Below are positions 565 to 11,835 of a DNA stretch of 20,879 nt, in pieces. A program made the translations under genes and the position numbers. The stretch comes from Candidatus Micrarchaeia archaeon (lineage in GTDB: Archaea > Micrarchaeota > Micrarchaeia > Norongarragalinales > CAINOH01). Positions within the stretch are counted from its first letter, which is position 1. Each line of letters starts with the position of its first letter. The stretch covers positions 1-20,879 of the forward strand of contig JBHHTN010000007.1 in the NCBI GenBank assembly GCA_046753405.1, given 5' to 3'. The notes under the pieces are model-generated. The model was given only the letters and a program-made list of their open reading frames with translations. It was not told the origin of the DNA and did no database searches.

Positions 565-1689
565 ATGAAGACTATTTTGGAGGGCAGCAAGGCGGTTGCC
601 CGTACGGTTGCTTTGTGCCGGCCTCATGTTATTCCAGCTTATCCTATTACGCCCAGTACGCATATTCCAGAGGAGTTGTCCAAAGAGCTTGCAGACTACG
701 AGTTTATTCCAGTTGAAGCCGAGTTTTCCGCAATGAGCGCGTGCATTGGGGCAAGCGCTGCAGGTGCTAGGGCGTTCACTGCTACCAGCAGCCAGGGGTT
801 GGCTTTGATGCACGAGGCGTTGCACAACGCAAGCGGAATGCGTCTTCCCATTGTCATGGCCGTTGCCAACAGGGCGTTGAGCGCTCCGATGAACATTTGG
901 TGTGACTGGCAGGACTCTGTTTCGCAGAGGGACACCGGTTGGATGCAGTTTTACTGCAAGAACAACCAGGAAGTTGTGGACACGATGATTCAATCGTTCA
1001 GGCTTGCTGAAAAGGTCCAGTTTCCGATAATGGTTTGCATGGATGGTTTTTACTTGACTCATGAAATTTCCCCAATTGACTTGCCTGTCCAAGAAGAGGT
1101 TGACGGGTTTTTGCCTGCTTTCAAACCCCGGTTTTCTTTGGACGTTGACGACGTGCATTCTTTTGGAACTTTTTTCCCGCCGGCGCATTATCATGATGCC
1201 AAGCGCGACCAGCAAAAGGAAATGCTCGCGGTTTTTCCTCATGTTGAACTTGTTGCAAAAGAGTTTGGGGAAAAGTTTGGTCGAGAGCAGTTTGGGGTTT
1301 TGGAAGAGTACTTCATGAAAAACTCGCAAGTGGTTTTTGTTTCAATGGGAGCGTTGGCTGAAAACGTTGAGTTGGTTGTGGATTCTTTGCGTGAGAAAGG
1401 AGAGCACGTGGGTTTGCTTCGCGTTAAGTGCTTCAGGCCGTTTCCATCTGTTCAATTTGCAAGGGCGTTGGAAAACGCGAGGGCGGTTGTTGTTTTGGAG
1501 AAAGATTTTTCACCTGGTTTGGAAGGCGCGCTTGCAACCGAAGTGAAAGCAGCGTTGCAGGACGCGCGCGAGAGGCCGAGCGTGTTGAGCGTTGTTTGCG
1601 GTCTTGGCGGGCGCGATGTCACTTTGAAGGAAATTGAAAGTGTTTTTGAACGGGCAAAAGGCGGGGAAACGGGTCCGACGTGGCTTTGA
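565..1689 (+). CDS. porA: 2-oxoacid (pyruvate or ketoisovalerate):ferredoxin oxidoreductase alpha subunit
   Basis: The 374-aa product shows PorA/VorA hallmarks (AYPITPST, GASAAGARAFTATSSQGL, DTGW). It has an ATG start and sits in the por cluster. Confidence 0.85.
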   Translation: MKTILEGSKAVARTVALCRPHVIPAYPITPSTHIPEELSKELADYEFIPVEAEFSAMSACIGASAAGARAFTATSSQGLALMHEALHNASGMRLPIVMAVANRALSAPMNIWCDWQDSVSQRDTGWMQFYCKNNQEVVDTMIQSFRLAEKVQFPIMVCMDGFYLTHEISPIDLPVQEEVDGFLPAFKPRFSLDVDDVHSFGTFFPPAHYHDAKRDQQKEMLAVFPHVELVAKEFGEKFGREQFGVLEEYFMKNSQVVFVSMGALAENVELVVDSLREKGEHVGLLRVKCFRPFPSVQFARALENARAVVVLEKDFSPGLEGALATEVKAALQDARERPSVLSVVCGLGGRDVTLKEIESVFERAKGGETGPTWL

Positions 1690-1713
1690 AATTTTAAGAG
1701 GGTGTTTTTTTGA

Positions 1714-2376
1714 TTGGTTTTGAAAAAGTTTCAACAAGACTTGCTGGTGTTATTGGCGCAGGAAGGCGCGCTTTACCGCTTTGTGAAGCTTACCACGGGG
1801 GAGTTGGCCGGGAAAGTGAGCGTTTCACAGCAAACTGTTTCTCGCTGGATTTCGGGTTTGGAAGAAGCTGGACTGATCTACAAAAACAAGCAAGGCTTTC
1901 GAATAACGCAGAGTGGCAGAGAGTTTTTGCAGGGAGTTCACTTGGCCTTGGACAAAGTGCTTTCGAAGAAGGCGGGCAGCGTTTTCTTGCAGGGAACGGT
2001 GACGGAGGGTTTTGGAGACGGCGCGTACTACACTTCCCTGCCGGAATACAAGAAACAGTTGAAAAAGAGCGTTGGCTTCGAAGCCTTTCCAGGCACTTTG
2101 AACATCCGTCTTTCTTCGGAAGAGGATTTAAGGCAGAGAATGAAGTTGGACTCCAAGACAGGGTTGCACGTGAGGGGGTTTACGAAAGGCAAGAGGAGGT
2201 TCGGTTCTGCAAAGTGTTTTCCAGCGCTTGTGAACGGAAAAGTGAAGGCAGCGGTGATTATTCCGCAAAGGAGTCATTACTCGGCGGAAGTGGTGGAGTT
2301 GATTGCGCCTCTGAAGTTGCGAAAGGCGTTGAAGTTGAAGGATAATTCGATTGTTGAAATTGAAGTAAAAGAATAG
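1714..2376 (+). CDS. ribK: CTP-dependent archaeal riboflavin kinase (MJ0056 family) fused to an N-terminal winged-helix HTH, i.e. an RbkR-like regulator/kinase
   Basis: The N-terminus carries an HTH (LTTGELAGKVSVSQQTVSRWISGLEEAGLI). The C-terminus carries archaeal RibK motifs (FPGTLNIRL, GKRRFGSAKCFPA). The start is TTG, with GGGTG about 9 nt upstream. Confidence 0.7.
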   Translation: MVLKKFQQDLLVLLAQEGALYRFVKLTTGELAGKVSVSQQTVSRWISGLEEAGLIYKNKQGFRITQSGREFLQGVHLALDKVLSKKAGSVFLQGTVTEGFGDGAYYTSLPEYKKQLKKSVGFEAFPGTLNIRLSSEEDLRQRMKLDSKTGLHVRGFTKGKRRFGSAKCFPALVNGKVKAAVIIPQRSHYSAEVVELIAPLKLRKALKLKDNSIVEIEVKE

Positions 2377-2386
2377 TTGAAAAAAA

Positions 2387-4312
2387 ATGGCTGGAAAATT
2401 TGAAAAACCAAAGGAGTACTTTTTGCACGGGCACAGGTCTTGCGCTGGGTGCGGTCCGGCTGTTGCCATGCGACAGTGCTTGCAGGCACTTGGCGACGAG
2501 ACGGTTGTGGTGAACGCCACAGGTTGCATGGAAGTTGTAAGCACGCAGTACCCTGAAAGTTCTTGGAACTTGCCTTACATTCACTCTCTTTTTGAAAACG
2601 TGCCGTCTGTTGCAAGCGGTGTTTCTCGCGCCTTCAAAAAATTGGGCAAAAAAGGGGTTGTTGTTGGAATAGGCGGCGACGGTGCATGTTATTCGCCCGA
2701 CACGAAAATTTTGACGGCCGATGGTTTCAAGTGGGTGGCCGACGTTTCAACTAAAGATATTCTTTGGAGCGTTAACCCTGACACCTTTGAGCTTGAATTG
2801 CAACCTGTTGAAAAACTGCATCAATATTTTTTTGAAGGAAAAATGGTGCGGGCAAATACGCGATACGTTGATTTTCTTGTTACTTCTAACCACAACATTC
2901 CTGCAATGTTTCGTAAATCTGGAAAAATAGTTTTTTTAAAGGCAGAAGAGCTGTTGAAAAAATATAAAACCTTGTTGCCAAGAAGTTTCAAGTGGCATGG
3001 AGAGAAGAAAGATAGATTTGTTCTTCCAAAACTTCCAAGCAAAACCAGTATGAGGCAGTATTCGTCTTTTGACGCTGGCGACTGGGCCGAATTTGTTGGC
3101 TGGTACGTTACCGAAGGCAGTTGTTATCATAGCGACAGTGGCTACCTTGTAAGAATTTATCAGTCAAATAAAAAGAACCGCAAGCATATTTTGCAGTTAG
3201 TTAGGAAAATGGGGTTGCGTGCTTCTGAGTGTAGTCGTTCTGTTGATATTTCATCCAAGCAGCTTTTTACCTGCCTCAAAAATACTTGCGGGGATTATTT
3301 TTACAATAAAAGAATTCCGAAAGACGTTCTTTCATTATCTTCTGACAAGCTTTTACGGCTTTTCGATGCAATGATTCGTGGCGACGGCTGCAAAGTTCGC
3401 CCAGGTAAGGGGAGAACTTCATTTAGAACAACTTTCATAACCAAGTCGTCGTACTTGGTAAGTCAATTTACCGAGCTTTGCTTAAAGCTTGGAAAAGGCG
3501 TTCACATAACTTATGATAATAGGAGGATAGCAAGAATTGGCGTTCAAGAGAAACATGTAAAAAACGAGTTGTATTCCACAAGAAAATTTTCCCAGGGAAA
3601 GACTCAAGTTTTTGAGGAGGATTATGAAGGAATAGTTTACTGTCCTCAACTTCCAAAGAACCATACGCTGATAATCGAACGAAATGGAAAAGTCTCGTTG
3701 AGCGGAAACAGTTACGACATCGGTTTCGGCGCGTTGTCTGGGGCGATGGAGCGAAACGAGGACATGATTTACATTGCCTACGACAACGAGTGTTACGCCA
3801 ACACAGGAGTGCAAAGATCGGGCGCTACTCCTATTGGCGCGGTTACTACCACCTCGCCTGCAGAAATTCACGGCAAAGCACAGTGGAAGAAGAACTTGCC
3901 GTTTATTGCCGCCGCGCACGCTATTCCTTACGTTGCAACAAGTAGCATTGCGTTTATTCCGGATTTGAAAAAAAAGCTGCAAAAGGCAAAGGAAAAAAAG
4001 GGCTTTAGGTTGGTTCACGTTCACGCGCCTTGCCCTCTTGGCTGGAGGTTCGATTCGGGGAAAACAATTGAAGTTGCACGCCTTGCAGTCCGATGCGGTT
4101 TGTGGAACTTGTTTGAAATTGAAAACGGTCTCTTCAAGCAGTCAATGCGTTTTCCAAAGTTGGTTGATGTTGAGGATTACTTGAAATTGCAGGGAAGATT
4201 CAAGATACTTGATGAACAACAGTTGAAACAAATCAAGGAACACCTTGCGCGTGTTCAAACAGAATTGAAAAAGCTTGAGGACGCCAAACTGAATTTAGAG
4301 TACTTTTTGTAA
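2387..4312 (+). CDS. porB: 2-oxoacid:ferredoxin oxidoreductase beta subunit (TPP-binding), interrupted by an intein
   Basis: The N-extein (CAGCGP, GIGGDGA) and C-extein (SYDIGFGALSG, YDNECYANTGVQRSGATP) match PorB. The 641-aa ORF is about 340 aa longer than a typical beta subunit. Confidence 0.9.
   Translation: MAGKFEKPKEYFLHGHRSCAGCGPAVAMRQCLQALGDETVVVNATGCMEVVSTQYPESSWNLPYIHSLFENVPSVASGVSRAFKKLGKKGVVVGIGGDGACYSPDTKILTADGFKWVADVSTKDILWSVNPDTFELELQPVEKLHQYFFEGKMVRANTRYVDFLVTSNHNIPAMFRKSGKIVFLKAEELLKKYKTLLPRSFKWHGEKKDRFVLPKLPSKTSMRQYSSFDAGDWAEFVGWYVTEGSCYHSDSGYLVRIYQSNKKNRKHILQLVRKMGLRASECSRSVDISSKQLFTCLKNTCGDYFYNKRIPKDVLSLSSDKLLRLFDAMIRGDGCKVRPGKGRTSFRTTFITKSSYLVSQFTELCLKLGKGVHITYDNRRIARIGVQEKHVKNELYSTRKFSQGKTQVFEEDYEGIVYCPQLPKNHTLIIERNGKVSLSGNSYDIGFGALSGAMERNEDMIYIAYDNECYANTGVQRSGATPIGAVTTTSPAEIHGKAQWKKNLPFIAAAHAIPYVATSSIAFIPDLKKKLQKAKEKKGFRLVHVHAPCPLGWRFDSGKTIEVARLAVRCGLWNLFEIENGLFKQSMRFPKLVDVEDYLKLQGRFKILDEQQLKQIKEHLARVQTELKKLEDAKLNLEYFL
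2687..3709 (+). mobile_element. Intein (341 aa) with a LAGLIDADG homing endonuclease, inserted in the GDG TPP-binding motif of PorB
   Basis: It starts CYSPDTKILTADG (intein block A) right after GIGGDGA. Two LAGLIDADG blocks are present (WAEFVGWYVTEGS and LLRLFDAMIRGDGC). It ends ...VSLSGN followed by Ser +1 (SYDIG). The predicted spliced product GDGA-SYDIGF matches the native PorB motif. Confidence 0.8.
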
Positions 4313-4344
4313 GAGTCGAAAAGCGTTTGTTCTTATAACTGTTT

Positions 4345-4938
4345 TTACTCCGTGTTATGGCTTTCATTCGTGCTTTGGTTTTTTGTTTGGTTTTTCAAAA
4401 GGCTTTCGCGGTATTCTTTGAGTATCTCGTCGGCTTGTCGTTGAGGCACTGTGGTGCCGCCCAAGGCGTAGGAAATCATGCTTCCGACTACTTCGGAGTT
4501 TTTGCATAAGAACTCGTCGTTTCCTTCGATTATCACTTGCTCGTTTATTTTCACGCAGTTGCACTCTCCGTGGGAAATCAAAATGTTTGGTTCTGCGCAT
4601 GTTTTTTGGCTTTCTTCAAGTGAAATGCATTTTTCTCCTGTTTTTGCTTCTACCAAAACGTTTTTGTTGCTTGCACCAAGTCCTAGGGAGACTTGGGTGA
4701 GCATTGATGAAATACATTCAATGTCTTCAACGCTTCTGAAATCGGCTTGTAATGTCACGTTTTTTTCAGTCAGCGCGTCGGGAAACGCGATTGCCGGCTT
4801 TTTAGAGCTTATTACCCGGACTCCTTCAACGTTGTATTCTTGGGTATTAGTCAAAAAAATCAAAAGCGCGAAGGCCGTGAGGAATGCAACGGCCCCGACA
4901 GTTGCTATTTTTGCAAGTGGAAATTCTTTTTCAGTCAT
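4345..4938 (-). CDS. Hypothetical membrane-anchored protein with a Cys-rich extracytoplasmic domain
   Basis: There is one N-terminal TM helix (IATVGAVAFLTAFALLIFL) followed by a soluble domain with 6 Cys. The tracked ORF extends to a TTG at 4962 that overlaps the rnz stop, but the ATG at 4938 is more plausible. It is co-directional with and immediately downstream of rnz. Confidence 0.5.
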   Translation of the reverse strand: MTEKEFPLAKIATVGAVAFLTAFALLIFLTNTQEYNVEGVRVISSKKPAIAFPDALTEKNVTLQADFRSVEDIECISSMLTQVSLGLGASNKNVLVEAKTGEKCISLEESQKTCAEPNILISHGECNCVKINEQVIIEGNDEFLCKNSEVVGSMISYALGGTTVPQRQADEILKEYRESLLKNQTKNQSTNESHNTE

Positions 4939-4958
4939 TTGTTGTAAACCTTTTTCAT

Positions 4959-5855
4959 TCAAATTTCAAGTTCCAATCCTTCTTCGGATAAAGCGCTTTC
5001 TTTGAATTCTTTTTTTGCTTCGACAAGCAAAGGGGTTCTGTCGTCGTACCTGTTGCTGAAGTGGGTAAGCACGAGTTTTTTCACTTGCGCTTTTTTGCAG
5101 GTTTTTGCAATTTGAAACGCGGTGCAGTGTTCTTTTTCCTTTGCCAGATCTTTGTGTTCGTGTAAAAACGTGCTGTCGGCAATTACTGCGTTGGCGTTTT
5201 CAAAGTGTTTTTCAAGCCCTGAAAAAAACGCGGTGTCTCCGGTGTAAACAATTTTTTTGCCCATCTGGACGAAGGTTACCTCTTCGTACTTAACGGTTTT
5301 TTTGCCGATTTTCAAAACGCCTTTTTTCCCTATTTCCGTGAAAAGCCTTCCTTTTATTCCTGCTTTGACGGCTTTTTTCTTGTCAAATCGTCGCTTGTCT
5401 TTTTCTTTGAAAACGTAGCCCAAAGCGTTTTTGCCGTGTTTGACCTGAAATGCGCGGACTTCGAAAACGTCGGTTTCAAAAACGGGTTTTTTTTCAGTTC
5501 CGGAGACTTCTTTTACTTTTACCTTAAAATTAGGTTTCAATTCATTGGTTGAAAACAAGGTTTCCAAGAATTTGCCAGAGCCTTTGGGCCCGAATACAAG
5601 AAGTTCTTCGGCGCGAGTGCTCATGTTAAGGGTTTGAACAAGCCCGAACAATCCCAAGAAATGGTCGGCGTGCAAGTGTGATAGAAACACGCTTTTCACT
5701 TTGGAGTAGCTGACGTTGTACTTCATCAATTGCCTTTGCACGCCTTCACAGGCGTCAAACAAGTAAGCTTTGTCTGCTTGGACTGCAAAGCACGATGGAA
5801 CGTGTTTTTTTGTTGGGACGGAGGCAGTGCTTCCGAGCATTACGATTTTAATCAT
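4959..5855 (-). CDS. rnz: Ribonuclease Z (tRNA 3'-processing endonuclease, metallo-beta-lactamase fold)
   Basis: The 298-aa product has HLHADH (the HxHxDH motif), LFDACEGVQRQL and a C-terminal THFS motif. The ATG start is at 5855. Confidence 0.85.
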   Translation of the reverse strand: MIKIVMLGSTASVPTKKHVPSCFAVQADKAYLFDACEGVQRQLMKYNVSYSKVKSVFLSHLHADHFLGLFGLVQTLNMSTRAEELLVFGPKGSGKFLETLFSTNELKPNFKVKVKEVSGTEKKPVFETDVFEVRAFQVKHGKNALGYVFKEKDKRRFDKKKAVKAGIKGRLFTEIGKKGVLKIGKKTVKYEEVTFVQMGKKIVYTGDTAFFSGLEKHFENANAVIADSTFLHEHKDLAKEKEHCTAFQIAKTCKKAQVKKLVLTHFSNRYDDRTPLLVEAKKEFKESALSEEGLELEI

Positions 5856-5985
5856 TTCAGACCTCTCAAAGCATATATAATTCTGTTTGGAATAATTTTT
5901 TCATTAAAGTATTTAATGCGCTTGCTTCCTTAATTTAAGGAGAGGGTGCTTTTTTTTTAATTTTGTTTTATTGGAGAGTGGTTTT

Positions 5986-8490
5986 ATGAGGAACGGAAAA
6001 TACTTGTTTACGTCTGAGTCGGTTACCGAGGGGCATCCTGACAAGGTATGCGACCAGATTTCCGACGCGGTTTTGGACTCTATTTTTGAAAAAGACCCCA
6101 ACGGCCGCGTTGCAGTTGAAGCATTGGTGACAACGGGACAAGTGGTAATAGCAGGAGAGGTTAGGACAAACGCTTACGTTGACGCTGCTGGCATTGCCAG
6201 GAAAGTAATCAATGATATTGGGTACACTGACGCGGAACTTCAGTTTTCCGGGGACAGTTGCGGTGTTTTGGTTGCAATTCACGAGCAGTCTCAAGACATC
6301 GCGCAAGGTGTTGACGAAGGCGAGAAAAAAGAGCAGGGTGCAGGCGACCAAGGACTCATGTTCGGGTACGCCTCGAACGAAACTCCTGAATTGATGCCGT
6401 TGCCGATTATTTTGGCTCACAAGCTTACAAAAAAACTTTCAAAGGCAAGAAAAAGCGGGGAGATTCCTTATCTTAGGCCGGATGGGAAAAGCCAGGTAAC
6501 TGTTGAATACGACGGGAACAAGCCGGTTCGCGTTACCGCAGTTGTCATTTCAACGCAGCACTCCGACGAGGTTTCAAACGAGCAAATACGAAAAGACGTT
6601 ATTGAAAAGGTAATAAAGCCGGTTTGCGGCGACTGGTTGAAAGACGACACCAAGTTTTTCATCAACGCAACAGGACGCTTTGTTTTGGGAGGGCCCGCGG
6701 CAGACACAGGCGTAACAGGAAGAAAGATAATCGTCGACACCTACGGCGGGCACGGAAGCCATGGGGGCGGCGCGTTTTGTGTTTCCGGGGAGTCAATCGT
6801 AAATTCGGAGAAAGGTTTGGCGCCAATTAACGAACTTTCTTCTCTTCCTTCTGGTTCGCTTGTCAAAACGGATGTTTCTCCAACTCCAATGGAAACATGG
6901 CTTGACAATGGAGTTATGAGTACTTTACGGTTAGAAACAAAAGATGGTTACGGGCTTGAAGGCACGCCAAACCAATGCATTCGTGCGATTGATTTCAAGG
7001 GTAATTACGTTTGGCGGCGTTTTGACGCGATTCAGTCAACTGACTGGGTTGCAATACAACGCAAGAACAGGTTGTTTGGCCAAAAATCTGTTGTGAATTT
7101 TGAATTTAAACACAAAAAAGCCGCGCATAGAAAAAACGATTTTTCTTTTCCTGCGGAGCTTACCGAAGACTATGCTTATTTGCTTGGCCTTTTAACCGGC
7201 GATGGCATGTGCACTACGCGTGACGGCGTGCGAGTATGCGTTTGCGAAAAACAAATGGAAGAAGTCGTGCAATCCTTGTTAACTCGTCTGTTTGGAAAAA
7301 AAGGCAAGATATTCGGACACTGGGCGCATTATTGCGGAGTGGAACTGCGAGCTTATCTGGAACAATTGGGTCTTGGTTATTGGCGTTCATGGCAAAAAAA
7401 AGTACCTGCCAGTGTTTTGAGCGCGCCAAAAACCACTGTCGCAGCTTTTATTCGCGGTTTGTTTGACGCTGACGGTACTGTTAGAAGAACCGGAAGAAAC
7501 AAGAATTCTGTGGAAGTGAAATTGACCACGACTTCCAAAGAACTTGCATTAGGAGTTCAACAATTGTTGTTGAACTTTGGAATAGTCTGCGCAATTCAAA
7601 CGGTGCAAACAACCGGGAAAACCTCGCGCATTCGCAACCGGACTGTTCGTTCTGCAAGGCCTCTTTACCACGTTCGTGTAAAAGGCGTTGACAGTGTTCG
7701 AATCTTCCAAAAAGAAATCAATTTTGCGCTTGCTCGCAAGGCCAAGATTCTAAACAACATTGAAAACTCGTCAAAACGCAGTCGTCTAACTATTCCAAAC
7801 CAGCGCGAGCGCGTGAGGAGGCTTTGGTTAAAGCTTTCCTCAAGTGAGCATCAGAAAGACCGCGCCGGCGTTGGGCACTGGTTGCGCAATCCAAGCACCA
7901 AAGGTACAAAGGAACTTACTTACGCCAAAATGATTGATTTTATTGACGCTTACGAAACAAAGTTTGCAGGCAATAATGATTTTGAGTACTTGAGAACGTT
8001 TTTTGTCATGAATCATTATTATTCGAAAGTCAAATCTACGCAAAAAAGTCAAAGTCACGTTTATGACTTTGTTGTTCCCGGAGCCCATGCGTTTACTGCC
8101 AACGGTTTTGTGTGCCACAATTCTGGAAAAGACCCTTCCAAGGTTGACCGTTCGGCATCTTACATGGCCAGGTACATTGCGAAAAACATTGTTGCAGCTG
8201 GTTTGGCCGACCAGTGCGAAGTACAAATTGCGTACTGCATTGGAGTGGCAGAACCGGTGTCGGTTTTGGTCAGCACTTTTGGCACGAACAAGATTCCTGA
8301 AGAGAAGATTGCCCAGCTTGTTCGCGAGCACTTTCCGCTTAAGCCCTCGGAGCTTATCGAGCACTTGAACCTGCGCAGGCCGATTTTCAGGAAAACAGCT
8401 GTGTACGGCCACTTCGGACGCGAAGACCCTGATTTCACGTGGGAAAAAACGGACAAAGCAGACGAGTTGAAGAAAGCGGCAGGGCTTTGA
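5986..8490 (+). CDS. metK: S-adenosylmethionine synthetase of the bacterial/eukaryotic MetK type, interrupted by a large intein
   Basis: MetK motifs are present: [42 protein letters not shown] before the insert, and [14 protein letters not shown] / [14 protein letters not shown] after it. The ATG is at 5986; the tracked ORF begins at an upstream TTG at 5971. Confidence 0.9.
6778..8121 (+). mobile_element. Intein (448 aa) with a LAGLIDADG homing endonuclease, inserted in the GGGAF|SGKD triphosphate-binding loop of MetK
   Basis: It starts at the Cys right after HGGGAF (CVSGESIVN...). LAGLIDADG blocks are [14 protein letters not shown] and [14 protein letters not shown]. It ends ...GFVCHN followed by Ser +1 ([11 protein letters not shown]). 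The predicted spliced product [16 protein letters not shown] is the canonical MetK motif. Confidence 0.85.
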
Positions 8491-8680
8491 AAAAAAAATC
8501 CTTGCGCTTTTAAGAAGCTTTTTTAAGGGGGTTGAAGTGTGTAATTTTTACTTTTTGCCAGCAACATTTGCGTGAGCTGAAACCGTGTTCAACTCTTCCT
8601 TTTTGAAAAAGTTGTTTGTCGTTGCTTGCCTTTAAGCAAAGGGTATTTATTGTCTTTTTTGCTAATTTCTTCTCTTTGAA

Positions 8681-8709
8681 GGCGTCAAACGCCGTTTTTC
8701 TGTTTTTTG
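8681..8709 (+). promoter_or_regulatory. GC hairpin plus double T-tract in the lon 5' leader; a terminator- or attenuator-like element
   Basis: GGCGT-caaa-ACGCC (8681-8694) is followed by gTTTTTctgTTTTTTg and ends about 10 nt before the lon ATG. A TATA-like TATTTAT lies at 8645-8651. Confidence 0.3.
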
Positions 8710-8719
8710 TGGGTAAGTT

Positions 8720-11182
8720 ATGAGGAAGTCTGTTCGGTCCAAAAAGGTTTCAGCGTCAAAGGCTGCAAAGTCTAAAGACCAAGACCCTTCTTTTTTGAAA
8801 GACTTCAAGTCTACTGCTGAAATTCACGTTTCTGAAAAACTGGTTGACCAGATCATCGGCCAGGAAAAAGCCGTTGAAGTAATAAAGAAAGCGGCAAGGC
8901 AAAAGAGGAACGTTTTGCTCATCGGCATTCCCGGAACCGGCAAAAGCATGATTGCACAGGCAATGAGCGAGCTTATTCCGCTTCAAGAGTTGCAGGACAT
9001 TATAGTTGAAGCAAATCCGGATGACGAAAACGTTCCTAAAATAAAAGTTGTGAAAGCAGGGGATGCGCGAAAATTCGTTGCAGCCGAAAAAACCAAAGGC
9101 AAAATGGCCGGAGGCAACATAAACATCGTGTTGTTCGTTTTCATGGCCTTGTCTACCATGGTTCTCTTGTACTTTGGACCCGGGTTTTTCGGCGAAGTCA
9201 TCACGGCCGCGCTTTTAATCGGGTCGTTCATGATGGGCGCAGGACTCATGTTTGCCTCGCAACTCGGACGAGGCCGCCTGATGGCCGAGGCAGAGTCATT
9301 GAAAGTGCTTGTGGACAACAAGGGAAGGAAAAAAGCTCCTTTTGTTGAGGCAACAGGAGCCAAGGCAGGGTCTTTGCTTGGCGACGTGAGGCACGATCCC
9401 TTTCAATCTACAATTGACGAAACAAAATTGTATGTTAGGCGTAGTGGTGGAATGCAGAAAATTTCTTTTGGAGCTCTTTGGAAAGAGATGGTTAAGAAGT
9501 ATCCTGACTTGTTTGAGCGTCGTGAGGATGGTTACGAAGCAATAATGCTTCCCGAAAGTGAAGAGCTTTACACGCTTGGAGTAAAGGATGGGCAGGTTGT
9601 GGCAACGAGAATGCTTGTTATTAACCGCCGTCCATTTAAGGGAAAAATTGTTGCTACTTATTCAAATAAAGGACTGCTTGAAACTACTCCTGAACATGCG
9701 TACATTCTTTCTGACAAAGAGAAAAAAGCATCAGAACTGGATGCTGATGACGAGCTTTTGATATTGCAGGATAAGCAAATTGTCGAGGAAAAAATTTCTT
9801 CTAAATCGGAGAAGGATTTTGACGGTTGGGTTTACAACACTACGACGGATACTGGGAATTTTTTTGCCAACGATGTTCTAATTCACAACTCCGGCGGTCT
9901 TGGAACTCCTCCGCATTTGCGTGTTGAGGCGGGTTTTGTTCACAAGGCTAATAAGGGGGTTTTGTTTGTTGATGAAGTTGCGACTTTGAGGCAGAAGAGC
10001 CAACAAGAGTTGTTGACTGCAATGCAGGAGCGAAAGTACTCGATTACAGGTCAAAGCGAGATGTCAAGCGGGGCCATGGTGAGAACCGAGCCAGTTCCGT
10101 GCGATTTTGTTTTGGTTGCAGCGGGTAATTACACTGACTTGCGCAAGATGCATCCGGCTTTGCGCTCCAGGATAAGGGGTTATGGTTACGAGGTTTACAT
10201 GGAGAAGTCTATTCCAAGCAATGTTGAAAACATAAAGAGGCTTGTCCAGTTCATAGCGCAGGAAGTTAAAAAGGACGGTAAGATTCCGCATTTTGACAAA
10301 AGTGCGGTAGTTGAAATAATCAAAGAAGCACACAAGAGATCTGGTCGCAAGAATAAGCTTACTTTGAAGCTTCGCGACCTTGGCGGTTTGATTCGTGCTG
10401 CTGGGGACCTGGCAAAAGAGCAGGGCGCGCACCATGTTTCTGTTTCTCATGTTAGACGGGCAAAAGTGATTTCAAGTACTTTGGAGCAGCAGGCAATGGC
10501 GCAGTATATTTCCATTAGGAAGGATTACCAAGTGTTTCAGACCAGAGGCAAAGCCATTGGAAGAGTCAATGGTTTGGCGGTGATGGCTGACGCCGGGCTT
10601 GTGCTTCCGATTGTTGCAGAGGTCAGTCCTGCTGCAAGCAAGCTTGAGGGAAAAATTATTGCAACTGGCAAGCTTGAGAAAATTGCCGAGGAAGCAGTGC
10701 AAAACGTAAGTGTCATTATCAAAAAGCATTTGGGAAAAGACACGTCCAACTACGACGTGCACGTTCAATTTTTGCAGACTTATGAGGGAGTGGAAGGAGA
10801 CAGTGCCAGTGTTTCTGTTGCAACCGCGGTTATTTCCGCGTTGGAGGAAGCGCCCATTGACCAGAATATTGCAATGACTGGCTCGTTGTCGGTTCGCGGA
10901 GAGGTTTTGCCAGTGGGCGGTGTTACTGGGAAGGTTGAAGCTGCAATTGAAGCGGGTTTGACAAAGGTGCTTGTTCCCAAGGCAAACGAGGGAGACATTG
11001 TGCTTGAAGAGGCAAAGTTGAAAAAAGTGGAAATCATCCCAGTGTGCGACATCTTCGACGTTTTGGATCACGCGTTGTCAAAGTCAAAGAAGAAAAAGCA
11101 ATTGCTTGGAACAATCAAAGAAGAATTGGGAGGATCATTTGAAAGTTTTTCAGATGTTATTAAGACAAGGCGCGAAAAGTAA
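8720..11182 (+). CDS. lonB: Archaeal membrane-bound ATP-dependent Lon protease (LonB), interrupted by a mini-intein
   Basis: Walker A is GIPGTGKS. Two TM helices are inserted in the AAA module (NINIVLFVFMALSTMVLLYF and ITAALLIGSFMMGAGLMF). GDVRHDPFQ and SGGLGTPPHLRVEAGFVHKANKGVLFVDE flank the insert. There is a C-terminal Lon protease domain (SVATAVISAL, GEVLPVGGVTGK). Confidence 0.9.
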   Translation: MRKSVRSKKVSASKAAKSKDQDPSFLKDFKSTAEIHVSEKLVDQIIGQEKAVEVIKKAARQKRNVLLIGIPGTGKSMIAQAMSELIPLQELQDIIVEANPDDENVPKIKVVKAGDARKFVAAEKTKGKMAGGNINIVLFVFMALSTMVLLYFGPGFFGEVITAALLIGSFMMGAGLMFASQLGRGRLMAEAESLKVLVDNKGRKKAPFVEATGAKAGSLLGDVRHDPFQSTIDETKLYVRRSGGMQKISFGALWKEMVKKYPDLFERREDGYEAIMLPESEELYTLGVKDGQVVATRMLVINRRPFKGKIVATYSNKGLLETTPEHAYILSDKEKKASELDADDELLILQDKQIVEEKISSKSEKDFDGWVYNTTTDTGNFFANDVLIHNSGGLGTPPHLRVEAGFVHKANKGVLFVDEVATLRQKSQQELLTAMQERKYSITGQSEMSSGAMVRTEPVPCDFVLVAAGNYTDLRKMHPALRSRIRGYGYEVYMEKSIPSNVENIKRLVQFIAQEVKKDGKIPHFDKSAVVEIIKEAHKRSGRKNKLTLKLRDLGGLIRAAGDLAKEQGAHHVSVSHVRRAKVISSTLEQQAMAQYISIRKDYQVFQTRGKAIGRVNGLAVMADAGLVLPIVAEVSPAASKLEGKIIATGKLEKIAEEAVQNVSVIIKKHLGKDTSNYDVHVQFLQTYEGVEGDSASVSVATAVISALEEAPIDQNIAMTGSLSVRGEVLPVGGVTGKVEAAIEAGLTKVLVPKANEGDIVLEEAKLKKVEIIPVCDIFDVLDHALSKSKKKKQLLGTIKEELGGSFESFSDVIKTRREK
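9407..9889 (+). mobile_element. Mini-intein (161 aa, no endonuclease domain) in the DPFQ|SGGLGTP motif of LonB
   Basis: It starts with Ser (STIDETKL...) and has a Hint block B-like LLETTPEHAYIL. It ends VLIHN followed by Ser +1. The predicted spliced product DPFQSGGLGTP matches the native archaeal LonB motif. No LAGLIDADG or HNH blocks were seen. Confidence 0.7.
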
Positions 11183-11197
11183 TTGTTTTACTTCTAG

Positions 11198-11228
11198 TTT
11201 TTTTTCGTCGAACAGCGAAAAAAAGGGC
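11198..11228 (+). terminator. T8 tract plus U:A-rich inverted repeat downstream of the lon stop; a putative bidirectional terminator
   Basis: T8 spans 11198-11205. The sequence TTTTTTTCG-tcgaacag-CGAAAAAAA is a 9-bp inverted repeat that gives a T-run on both strands. Confidence 0.4.
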
Positions 11229-11599
11229 AAAGTTTATAAACTAGGTGGTTGCAAGTTACTATTCATCGAATTTTGAAGAGAAAGTGTGGTTAAGAGAGGG
11301 TAAACAGCGCATTTCAAAACGTCTTTTTCTCCGGATTGCCTCCGAGGGGTTTTTCACGCCTTTTACTTGCTCTCTTTTCCACCTGTGTTTGGTTTTCTAT
11401 TTTTTTCCAAGTTTTTCCCTTTTTTTTGCGCCTCACCTTCCGGTTTTTTATGCCGCGTTTATTACGCCGTACTCCTTAATATATTTTACGGTTTTTCCTG
11501 CCTCCGTTTTCCAAAACAAGCCCACTGAAGCCTTTTTACGGGATAAAGAGCTTTCTGTGGCCTTTTTGAAACTGTTGCTTTTGTTGTGTTTGAAAAGCG

Positions 11600-11790
11600 A
11601 TGGTCTGCAAACCTAAAAAAGCGAGAAGGCGCCAAAAAAAAGGTTTGCTTCATTCCGAAAGCTTATGCGGAATTTCCGTATGGAATTCCCTTGTTGCTTT
11701 CGGTATAAAAAGTTCCGGTAAGACATTCTACAAAGTAGATAAAATGAGCGTGCATTCTTCTTGCAAGAAATGCGTGATCCATACCGGTTT
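11600..11790. other. Cluster of perfect inverted repeats and stem-loops in non-coding DNA; a candidate structured ncRNA or protein-binding sites
   Basis: An 8-bp stem GCAAACCT (11607-11614) pairs with AGGTTTGC (11641-11648) around a symmetric loop aaaaaaGCGAGAAGGCGCCaaaaaaa. ATTCCG (11652-11657) pairs with CGGAAT (11668-11673). TTCC-gtat-GGAA follows. CCGGTA (11715-11720) pairs with TACCGG (11782-11787) and encloses a CTAC-aaa-GTAG hairpin and the 12-nt palindrome TTCTTGCAAGAA (11758-11769), which is flanked by GCAT/ATGC. Confidence 0.25.
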
Positions 11791-11835
11791 TGCCTCGAAT
11801 AAAAAGGGTAACCGAAGTTAATAAACGTTGTTGTT

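Follow-up and report, generated by a model that had tools for sequence, protein, structure and literature searches.

We report on a window of 20,879 nt from an uncultured archaeon, named 'Candidatus Micrarchaeia archaeon' (DPANN) in the GenBank protein records, in which three neighbouring genes each carry an insert identified as an intein. The hosts, encoded by three long, continuous plus-strand open reading frames (ORFs), are a PorB-type oxidoreductase beta subunit (2387-4312), a bacterial-type MetK (5971/5986-8490) and an archaeal LonB (8720-11182). By their sequences, the inserts of PorB, MetK and LonB are all class-1, HINT-fold inteins. We consider it highly probable that they are genuine elements of this kind, self-excising and selfish, which were acquired independently in three adjacent housekeeping genes, and whose splicing and homing are predicted. 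The first-pass annotation of this DNA had proposed inteins in these three hosts, a proposal now borne out by family profiles, matches to solved inteins, predicted structures (PorB and LonB) and intein-free orthologues.

Host-family models match each precursor as two flanks, leaving a central segment of PorB, MetK and LonB uncovered. In this order, the inserts begin with Cys, Cys and Ser; each ends with Asn and is followed by a +1 Ser, just as the junctions had first been read. These position-1, C-terminal and +1 residues are conserved within each of the three intein families, and each insertion is in frame, with contiguous flanks in orthologues, as expected of class 1 inteins. There are no stops or frameshifts across the 341, 448 and 161 insert codons, and the G+C content of the inserts (0.40, 0.44 and 0.40) is lower than that of the exteins (0.48, 0.51 and 0.47). 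When the inserts are deleted in silico, PorB, MetK and LonB align gap-free through the junction with solved intein-free orthologues (9bt4_C, 7r2w and 3k1j), which have no natural insertions at these sites; this alignment had been suggested as a check of the first reading. At the DNA level, the uninterrupted empty sites of related genomes line up with the joined flanks of the window precisely at the junction, 6-13 of 48 nt being mismatched. The relative GCA_053535615.1 (L003, a 1.23-Mb contig) has an intein-free MetK (388 aa) and LonB (659 aa), which are 83% and 74-75% identical to the exteins of the window. Whole-protein Pfam scans gave no intein match for PorB or LonB and insert-only scans were weak, and the identification relied on PDB searches, family profiles and structure prediction. 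The HINT fold was recognized in the PorB and LonB inserts from AlphaFold2 (AF2) models searched with Foldseek, and in the MetK insert from a profile of its HINT region compared with solved mini-inteins.

The porB-type gene (2387..4312, plus strand; GenBank MFQ5405696.1) encodes a 641-aa precursor of a 2-oxoacid:ferredoxin oxidoreductase beta subunit, with a predicted spliced product of 300 aa. NCBIfam PRK11865 (PorB; E 1.9e-105) matches it in two pieces, aa 1-100 and 442-641, and the alignment of the spliced protein with the PFOR beta subunit 9bt4_C reaches an E-value of 1.1e-86. The intein occupies aa 101-441 (341 aa; nt 2687-3709, plus strand) between the junctions GGDGA/CYSPDTKIL and VSLSGN/SYDIG, where the slash marks the splice point; it thus enters after the GDGA of the GDG...NN motif that binds thiamine pyrophosphate (TPP), at what we call site a. 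Its key residues are Cys1, T66 and H69 of block B (VTSNH, nt 2879-2893), the terminal Gly340-Asn341 and the +1 Ser at 3710-3712. In a 14-sequence family alignment H69 is invariant and T66 at least 90% conserved, in register with VTPiH of the V-ATPase inteins, and block F reads VYCP with an invariant Cys319 (nt 3632-3652). Both sequence and predicted structure indicate a two-motif LAGLIDADG homing endonuclease, whose core (3092..3388, plus strand) comprises motif 1, FVGWYVTEGS (3092-3121, with Glu143), and motif 2, LFDAMIRGDG (3359-3388, with Asp233); E143 and D233 are invariant in the same alignment.

Single-sequence searches with the PorB insert were weak (PI-PkoII, 2e-5; Pfam LAGLIDADG_3, 0.007 and 17 bits, below the cut-off). 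The profile of the 14-member family matched PI-PkoII in the PDB at 2.3e-13, together with V-ATPase inteins, the KlbA intein and a BIL domain, and the endonuclease region of PI-PkoII aligns with the endonuclease core of the PorB intein. For the AF2 model (predicted local distance difference test, pLDDT, 92.2; predicted template modelling score, pTM, 0.91), the top Foldseek match was the TliVMA intein (1.5e-15), followed by PI-PkoII, PhoVMA, PI-SceI and PI-PfuI, and the free-standing LAGLIDADG enzymes I-DmoI, I-SceI and I-Tsp061I ranked below the inteins. The best structural and profile matches, TliVMA/PhoVMA (7qsu, 7qss, 7qst) and PI-PkoII (2cw7), resemble the PorB intein in architecture, with a two-motif LAGLIDADG endonuclease lodged in the HINT splicing domain. 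However, they reside in other hosts (V-ATPase A and DNA polymerase) at other sites and are only 11-15% identical, and the PorB intein differs from them in its Gly-Asn end and in a block-F Cys where Asp is usual.

The Gly-Asn end is shared by 28 of the 29 PorB site-a inteins, with Met-Asn in the remaining one, and all 29 start with Cys. This clade-wide conservation argues for a compensated, functional splicing reaction. A penultimate Gly is also present in the Ceu ClpP and Mja RpolA' inteins, and the Ceu ClpP intein reportedly needed a Gly-to-His change to splice in E. coli. According to PMC4031507 (refs 74, 75 and 87), splicing without the penultimate His is documented, the residue being assisting and not obligatory; the examples cited there include the work of Chen, Benner & Perler (2000) and the Chlamydomonas eugametos ClpP intein (Wang & Liu 1997). 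The PorB family, with Gly-Asn in 28 of 29 clusters, resembles these inteins but occupies other hosts. A class 3 intein was also considered for PorB and ruled out: the Cys1/Ser1 nucleophile that class 3 inteins generally lack is present as an invariant Cys1, and the signature Trp and Thr are absent. Set against Trp(B:12)-Cys(F:4)-Thr(G:5), the PorB intein has a variable Ile71 at B:12 and Ser339 at G:5, a Ser/Asn position, so that only Cys319 fits. Placing C319 at F:4 is suggested by the motif resemblance of VYC to VYD; over inteins as a whole, only one residue is more frequent at F:4 than Cys (PMC4031507).

Two observations concern the surroundings of porB. Between porA and porB (565-4312) lies a gene (1714-2376) whose product combines a winged helix with a CTP-dependent riboflavin kinase, an arrangement also found in L003. 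Upstream in the window there are no gamma or delta subunit genes, in contrast to the porGDAB operon of L005.

The bacterial-type metK gene (5986..8490, plus strand) starts at ATG 5986, the mechanically called ORF opening at TTG 5971, and encodes an 834-aa precursor with a predicted spliced product of 386 aa. TIGR01034 (metK; E 1.2e-170) matches it in two pieces, and the spliced protein is gap-free against E. coli MetK (7r2w/1fug; E 5.6e-157 for 7r2w). The intein spans aa 265-712 (448 aa; nt 6778-8121, plus strand), with the junctions GGGAF/CVSGES and GFVCHN/SGKD, and therefore interrupts the GGGAFSGKD motif between GGGAF and SGKD. Its key residues are Cys1, T63-P-N-Q66 of block B (nt 6961-6984), His447-Asn448 and the +1 Ser at 8122-8124; block F reads VYD, with Asp430. 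The sequence again indicates a two-motif LAGLIDADG endonuclease (core 7177..7476, plus strand; motif 1 at 7177-7206 with Asp142, motif 2 at 7447-7476 with Asp232), and both Asp residues are invariant in 75 of 75 family members. The MetK insert gives profile evidence of the kind proposed for checking the first reading: Pfam LAGLIDADG_3 scores 79 bits against a cut-off of 22.5, Hom_end also matches, TIGR01443 (intein_Cterm) scores 24.4 bits against a cut-off of 15.6, and the intein parts of the DnaB, GyrA, IF2, RecA, RNR, RpoA'' and V-ATPase models are matched as well. A profile of the family's splicing domain finds the inteins of Mxe GyrA, Ssp DnaB and Mtu RecA (4e-10 to 1e-7), and the best sequence match of the endonuclease region is the TliVMA intein endonuclease (7qsu).

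The block B of the MetK intein lacks the canonical Thr-x-x-His, with Gln66 standing in the register of His75 of Mxe GyrA and His73 of Ssp DnaB. Many inteins depend strictly on the block-B His; a few natural ones lack it (PMC6333167). Since this His is an assisting residue that some natural inteins lack, its absence does not exclude MetK from the inteins. Across 75 MetK inteins the position is Gln in 53 and His in 22, and this split is matched without exception two positions ahead of the block-F Asp, where Val accompanies Gln and Thr accompanies His (window 8056-8064). Gln is retained within its clade down to 46% identity, and its fixation across 53 diverged clusters argues for compensated, functional splicing. 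Arg69 is invariant in the family, and position -1 is occupied by the conserved Phe of GGGAF; this bulky Phe, the invariant Arg69 or both may compensate for Gln66. The parallel here is with the orthologues of the Tko CDC21-1 intein, natural inteins without the block-B His, and with the finding that bulky -1 residues can compensate for its loss (PMC6333167). Like these orthologues, the MetK intein combines a missing block-B His with a bulky -1 residue (Phe in MetK, Leu in Tko); unlike them, it belongs to an unrelated host and family, its replacement is Gln, and the family divides into Gln (53) and His (22) clades. The MetK family appears well suited for examining, in natural inteins, how the N-terminal splice junction is activated without the block-B His. 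Concerning the host itself, the S-adenosylmethionine (SAM) synthetase of the window is of the bacterial/eukaryotic MetK type, aligned end-to-end with E. coli MetK, and not of the divergent archaeal methionine adenosyltransferase type. Since intein-bearing MetK spans Nanoarchaeota, Aenigmarchaeota, Woesearchaeota and Micrarchaeota, the distribution suggests that this enzyme was acquired long ago within DPANN.

The archaeal lonB gene (8720..11182, plus strand; MFQ5405700.1) encodes an 820-aa precursor with a predicted spliced product of 659 aa (TIGR00764 LonB, E 3.4e-253), which aligns gap-free with Thermococcus onnurineus LonB (TonLonB, 3k1j; E 2e-221). Its insert occupies aa 230-390 (161 aa; nt 9407-9889, plus strand), with the junctions HDPFQ/STIDETKL and VLIHN/SGGLGTP. 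The key residues are Ser1, T94-P-E-H97 of block B (nt 9683-9697), His160-Asn161 and the +1 Ser at 9890-9892; T94 and H97 are invariant and align with TPSH of Pho RadA, and block F reads VYN with an invariant Asn144. The first-pass annotation had described Hint and LAGLIDADG blocks in each insert, which holds for PorB and MetK; in LonB the Hint part stands, and neither a Pfam scan of the insert nor the AF2 model revealed a LAGLIDADG domain, leaving a 161-aa HINT-only mini-intein. Sequence searches with this insert matched the Pho RadA mini-intein at 3.6e-6 and the NrdJ-1 intein at 3e-5. The AF2 model, built on an alignment of natural mini-inteins only, has a pLDDT of 95.9, and in Foldseek it matched PhoCDC21-1 (8.9e-11, TM-score 0.85) and the Pho RadA, TvoVMA and PabCDC21-1 inteins, with TM-scores of 0.77-0.85 overall. 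These mini-inteins share the HINT-only fold, and residues 27-161 of the LonB insert align with Pho RadA with the TPxH and block F/G motifs in register. They differ in host and are about 20% identical, and the LonB element has Asn rather than Asp at block F and Ser1 rather than Cys1.

The LonB insertion point lies in a highly conserved AAA+ loop, HDPFQSGGLGTP, flanked by the Walker A and Walker B motifs. Judged from LonA, this loop is probably pore-loop 1, which is not strictly catalytic. The earlier claim that every insert splits a catalytic motif thus holds in that all three sit in highly conserved functional motifs, and the active-site wording does not suit LonB. Nor is the LonB site part of any novelty, being the classical, experimentally studied Lon intein site of Pyrococcus abyssi. 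The splicing of this intein (Pab Lon) was studied by O'Brien et al. 2010, as cited in PMC4031507 (ref 84), and UniProt annotates LONB_PYRAB as 'lon intein containing'. Pab Lon shares with the window the identical insertion point HDPFQ/SGGLGTP, the +1 Ser and the C-terminal Asn, and the LonB-site inteins, these two included, have TPxH at block B and VYN-type motifs at block F in common. Pab Lon differs in its length of 333 aa, its Cys1 and its Lys-Asn end, compared with 161 aa, Ser1 and His-Asn in the window. Direct similarity between the two is marginal (BLAST E 0.01-0.02), and the nearest relatives are the LonB inteins of Micrarchaeota, at 33-39% identity. The insertion follows the pattern of the LonB-site allele, HDP[FL]Q/[ST]GGLGTP, and its junctions recur unchanged in many Micrarchaeota as well as in P. 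abyssi, P. kukulkanii and a Thermococcus sp. The two ends of same-site inteins of 492-497 aa, their first 137 and last 24 residues, align with residues 1-137 and 138-161 of the mini-intein, again with 33-39% identity. This is the pattern expected if the LonB element were a same-site full-length intein after deletion of its endonuclease.

The conserved residues would support the standard four-step course of class-1 splicing. Cys1 (PorB, MetK) or Ser1 (LonB) would attack the preceding peptide bond in an N-S or N-O acyl shift, the N-extein would then move to the +1 Ser by trans-esterification, and cyclisation of the terminal Asn would free the intein. A final O-N shift would produce a normal peptide bond and rebuild GDGA-SYDIG, GGGAF-SGKD and HDPFQ-SGGLGTP; one predicted peptide across such a ligated-extein junction is HDPFQSGGLGTPPHLR. 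In PorB, splicing would thereby restore the GDG motif that binds TPP and Mg; in MetK, the triphosphate loop GGGAFSGKD; and in LonB, the loop HDPFQSGGLGTP. Because the inserts split these key motifs, each enzyme is expected, from the position of the insert, to work only after splicing. The endonucleases of the PorB and MetK inteins presumably still home, by cleaving the same conserved DNA site in alleles that lack the intein. Without an endonuclease, the LonB element would persist only because precise deletion is rare.

None of the three intein types is unique to this genome. Site occupancy was counted, for each host, over the best 120 protein clusters. PorB site a (GDG[AG]/[ST]xDIG) carries an intein in 29 of these clusters, across DPANN archaea, and a second PorB site (Y.N/TGxQ) carries a canonical C...HN intein in 53 of the 120, with two proteins occupied at both. 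A third PorB site, IYL/CYDNE, is occupied in the syntenic relative L003 (L003:3609-6173), and all three sites fall within the TPP-binding GDG...NN motif of about 35 residues. Some of the intein-bearing PorB proteins are labelled 'intein/homing endonuclease' by the Joint Genome Institute. Full-length relatives of the PorB intein, with 38-39% identity and the same CYSPDT start and VYCP...GN end, occur in a glutamate-synthase/FMN-dehydrogenase-like protein (GAKPG/C) and in a UDP-glucose dehydrogenase; thus, one family of inteins has spread to three or more unrelated host proteins. In MetK, intein domains are present in all of the best 120 clusters, from Nanoarchaeota, Aenigmarchaeota, Woesearchaeota and Micrarchaeota, and C...HN/SGKD occurs at the same point in at least 75 (74 besides that of the window). 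Some DPANN MetK homologues of about 1,235-1,242 aa have a second intein of about 405 aa at another MetK signature motif (GAGDQG/C...VHN/SMFG), a site that is empty in the window. A scan of genome contigs with the single MetK intein found only two distant loci, at 26-29% identity. The LonB site is occupied in 40 and empty in 77 of the 120 nearest clusters, and the mini-intein of the window has only 49 representatives at E<=1e-3 among 1.84 billion proteins.

Related genomes show that the three inteins do not travel together. L003 has 12 orthologues in the same order as the window, with 32-83% identity (porA, riboflavin kinase, porB, hypothetical, metallo-beta-lactamase, metK, lonB, DUF373, Band_7, SpoIIM, rpoL and PCNA). 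Besides its intein-free MetK and LonB, it has an empty PorB site a and a 545-aa intein at a different PorB site (site c). In GCA_053535535.1 (L006), MetK is occupied and the adjoining LonB is empty. This varied occupancy indicates that the three inteins were gained or lost independently. The density pointed out in the first-pass annotation, with three inteins within 7.2 kb, does not mark a unit, as syntenic relatives have other combinations of occupied and empty sites. The cluster looks like a coincidence, and the most economical reading is that of three independent invasions of neighbouring, highly conserved target genes, caught at different stages of the homing cycle. On this reading, the inteins lie close to one another only because the genes they target, each highly conserved, are by chance adjacent in this lineage.

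Several observations weigh against three functional, independently acquired inteins. The splicing of all three precursors, and homing, are deduced from sequence; the Pfam Intein_splicing score lies below the curated cut-off for all three inserts; and the replacement of the penultimate His by Gly in PorB and of the block-B His by Gln66 in MetK could in principle impair splicing. There is also the chance of finding three inteins within 7.2 kb, which in a simulation of uniform placement in 1.2 Mb is about 0.01 at 10 inteins and 0.1-0.3 at 20-30 inteins, figures that hang on an assumed intein number and not on the counted load of the genome. The same residue deviations, the absence of an endonuclease in LonB and the low Pfam scores would also suit a different account, in which at least one insert is a decayed, non-splicing intein whose host protein is either inactive, being backed by another copy or by the DPANN cell's host organism, or tolerates a permanent extra domain; DPANN archaea are often host-dependent, and a loss of function is conceivable. 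We nevertheless judge such decay improbable. The nucleophiles are intact (C1, C1 and S1, the terminal Asn and the +1 Ser), the reading frames are free of stops and frameshifts, and the deviant residues are clade-wide rather than sporadic. Natural inteins without one or the other His are known to splice, as indicated in PMC6333167 and in PMC4031507 (refs 74-75). The exteins retain all motif residues and are 74-83% identical to intein-free orthologues; together with the invariant acidic residues of the endonucleases and the lower G+C of the inserts, we count this identity as evidence of selection on function. Moreover, a permanent insert of 161-448 aa in an Mg-TPP motif, a triphosphate-binding loop or an AAA+ loop would very probably not be tolerated.

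Slightly less probable still is a linked origin or function, in which the three inteins were co-imported on one recombination tract of about 8 kb from an intein-rich donor, or were retained as co-ordinated conditional-splicing switches. The low chance value at about 10 inteins per genome speaks for it, as does the lack of any other oversized gene in the 30.3 kb of the source contig examined. However, the same-order relatives L003 and L006 carry other combinations, the three elements stand at differing stages of the homing cycle (two endonucleases intact, one deleted), and they belong to unrelated families, each of which is widely distributed on its own. Since inteins target conserved genes, which are unevenly spread, a uniform null also overstates the surprise. 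That the inserts arose from the assembly or gene calling, through a chimeric contig or misjoined reads, has a negligible probability. The source is a metagenome assembly, and the MetK of GenBank is only a 186-aa piece, but this short MetK is a problem of annotation and not of sequence. All three precursors recur residue for residue on the 20,879-nt GenBank contig of the metagenome-assembled genome and on a 42,351-nt Logan contig (run SRR29324598), at whose start the window lies, and independent assemblies of other samples, dozens to over 100 in number, have homologous inteins at exactly the same sites. Three genuine inteins, independently acquired, therefore remain our preferred explanation.

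A further idea goes beyond this explanation, namely that the inteins act as conditional-splicing switches through which this archaeon, with its reduced genome, gates three central activities after translation: the oxidation of pyruvate, the supply of SAM and proteolysis at the membrane. Cys1, the block-F Cys319 of PorB and several Cys residues of the MetK intein might respond to redox or temperature. We regard this broad proposal as improbable, and a narrower one as likelier, that the MetK Gln clade activates its N-terminal junction without the block-B His. If true, the Gln clade would provide a new natural model for alternative intein catalysis.

These results reveal no new kind of element and no functional three-intein system. 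The inteins of the window are further members of a well-known class, with PorB and MetK insertion sites that are apparently undescribed. No description of PorB or MetK inteins was found in the searchable literature (InBase and subscription journals lay outside this search), and a 2023 survey tabulating inteins by archaeal group included only two DPANN genomes, with one intein gene (PMC10643990). The earlier remark that PorB and MetK are not classical intein hosts is therefore apt for the searchable literature, but not for public DPANN sequences, where such inteins are abundant. The present analysis extends the intein hosts by two proteins and the insertion sites by at least five, all abundant in DPANN and not found in that literature (PorB GDGA/S, IYL/CYDNE and Y.N/TG; MetK GGGAF/SGKD and GAGDQG/). 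It also provides two natural families with non-consensus residues that can be tested biochemically: the MetK inteins in which Gln replaces the block-B His behind a -1 Phe, and the PorB inteins with a Gly-Asn terminus.

Inteins break automated gene calls in this region. GenBank MFQ5405699.1, a 'methionine adenosyltransferase domain-containing protein', comprises only the last 186 aa of MetK (about 7930-8490) and starts inside the intein, and the GenBank LonB starts 34 codons late (786 vs 820 aa). Through broken MetK calls, metabolic reconstructions of DPANN archaea could seem to lack SAM synthesis. Minus-strand ORFs that overlap the inteins (e.g. 3482-4024 and 7840-8412) are assumed to be spurious by-products of the long plus-strand ORFs.

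Elsewhere, the window has an archaeal gene set, with PCNA, RNA polymerase subunit L, LonB, DUF373 and a CTP-dependent riboflavin kinase. A tRNA scan of the window returned no genes and an Rfam scan no families. Directly after lonB, a stretch of low G+C (about 0.38; 11183-11835) contains a sole ORF of 123 aa (11245-11616) with no Pfam match. Its counterpart in L003 is a 389-aa gene with a weak Hpr_kinase_C match, which marks this as a variable spot amid conserved synteny.

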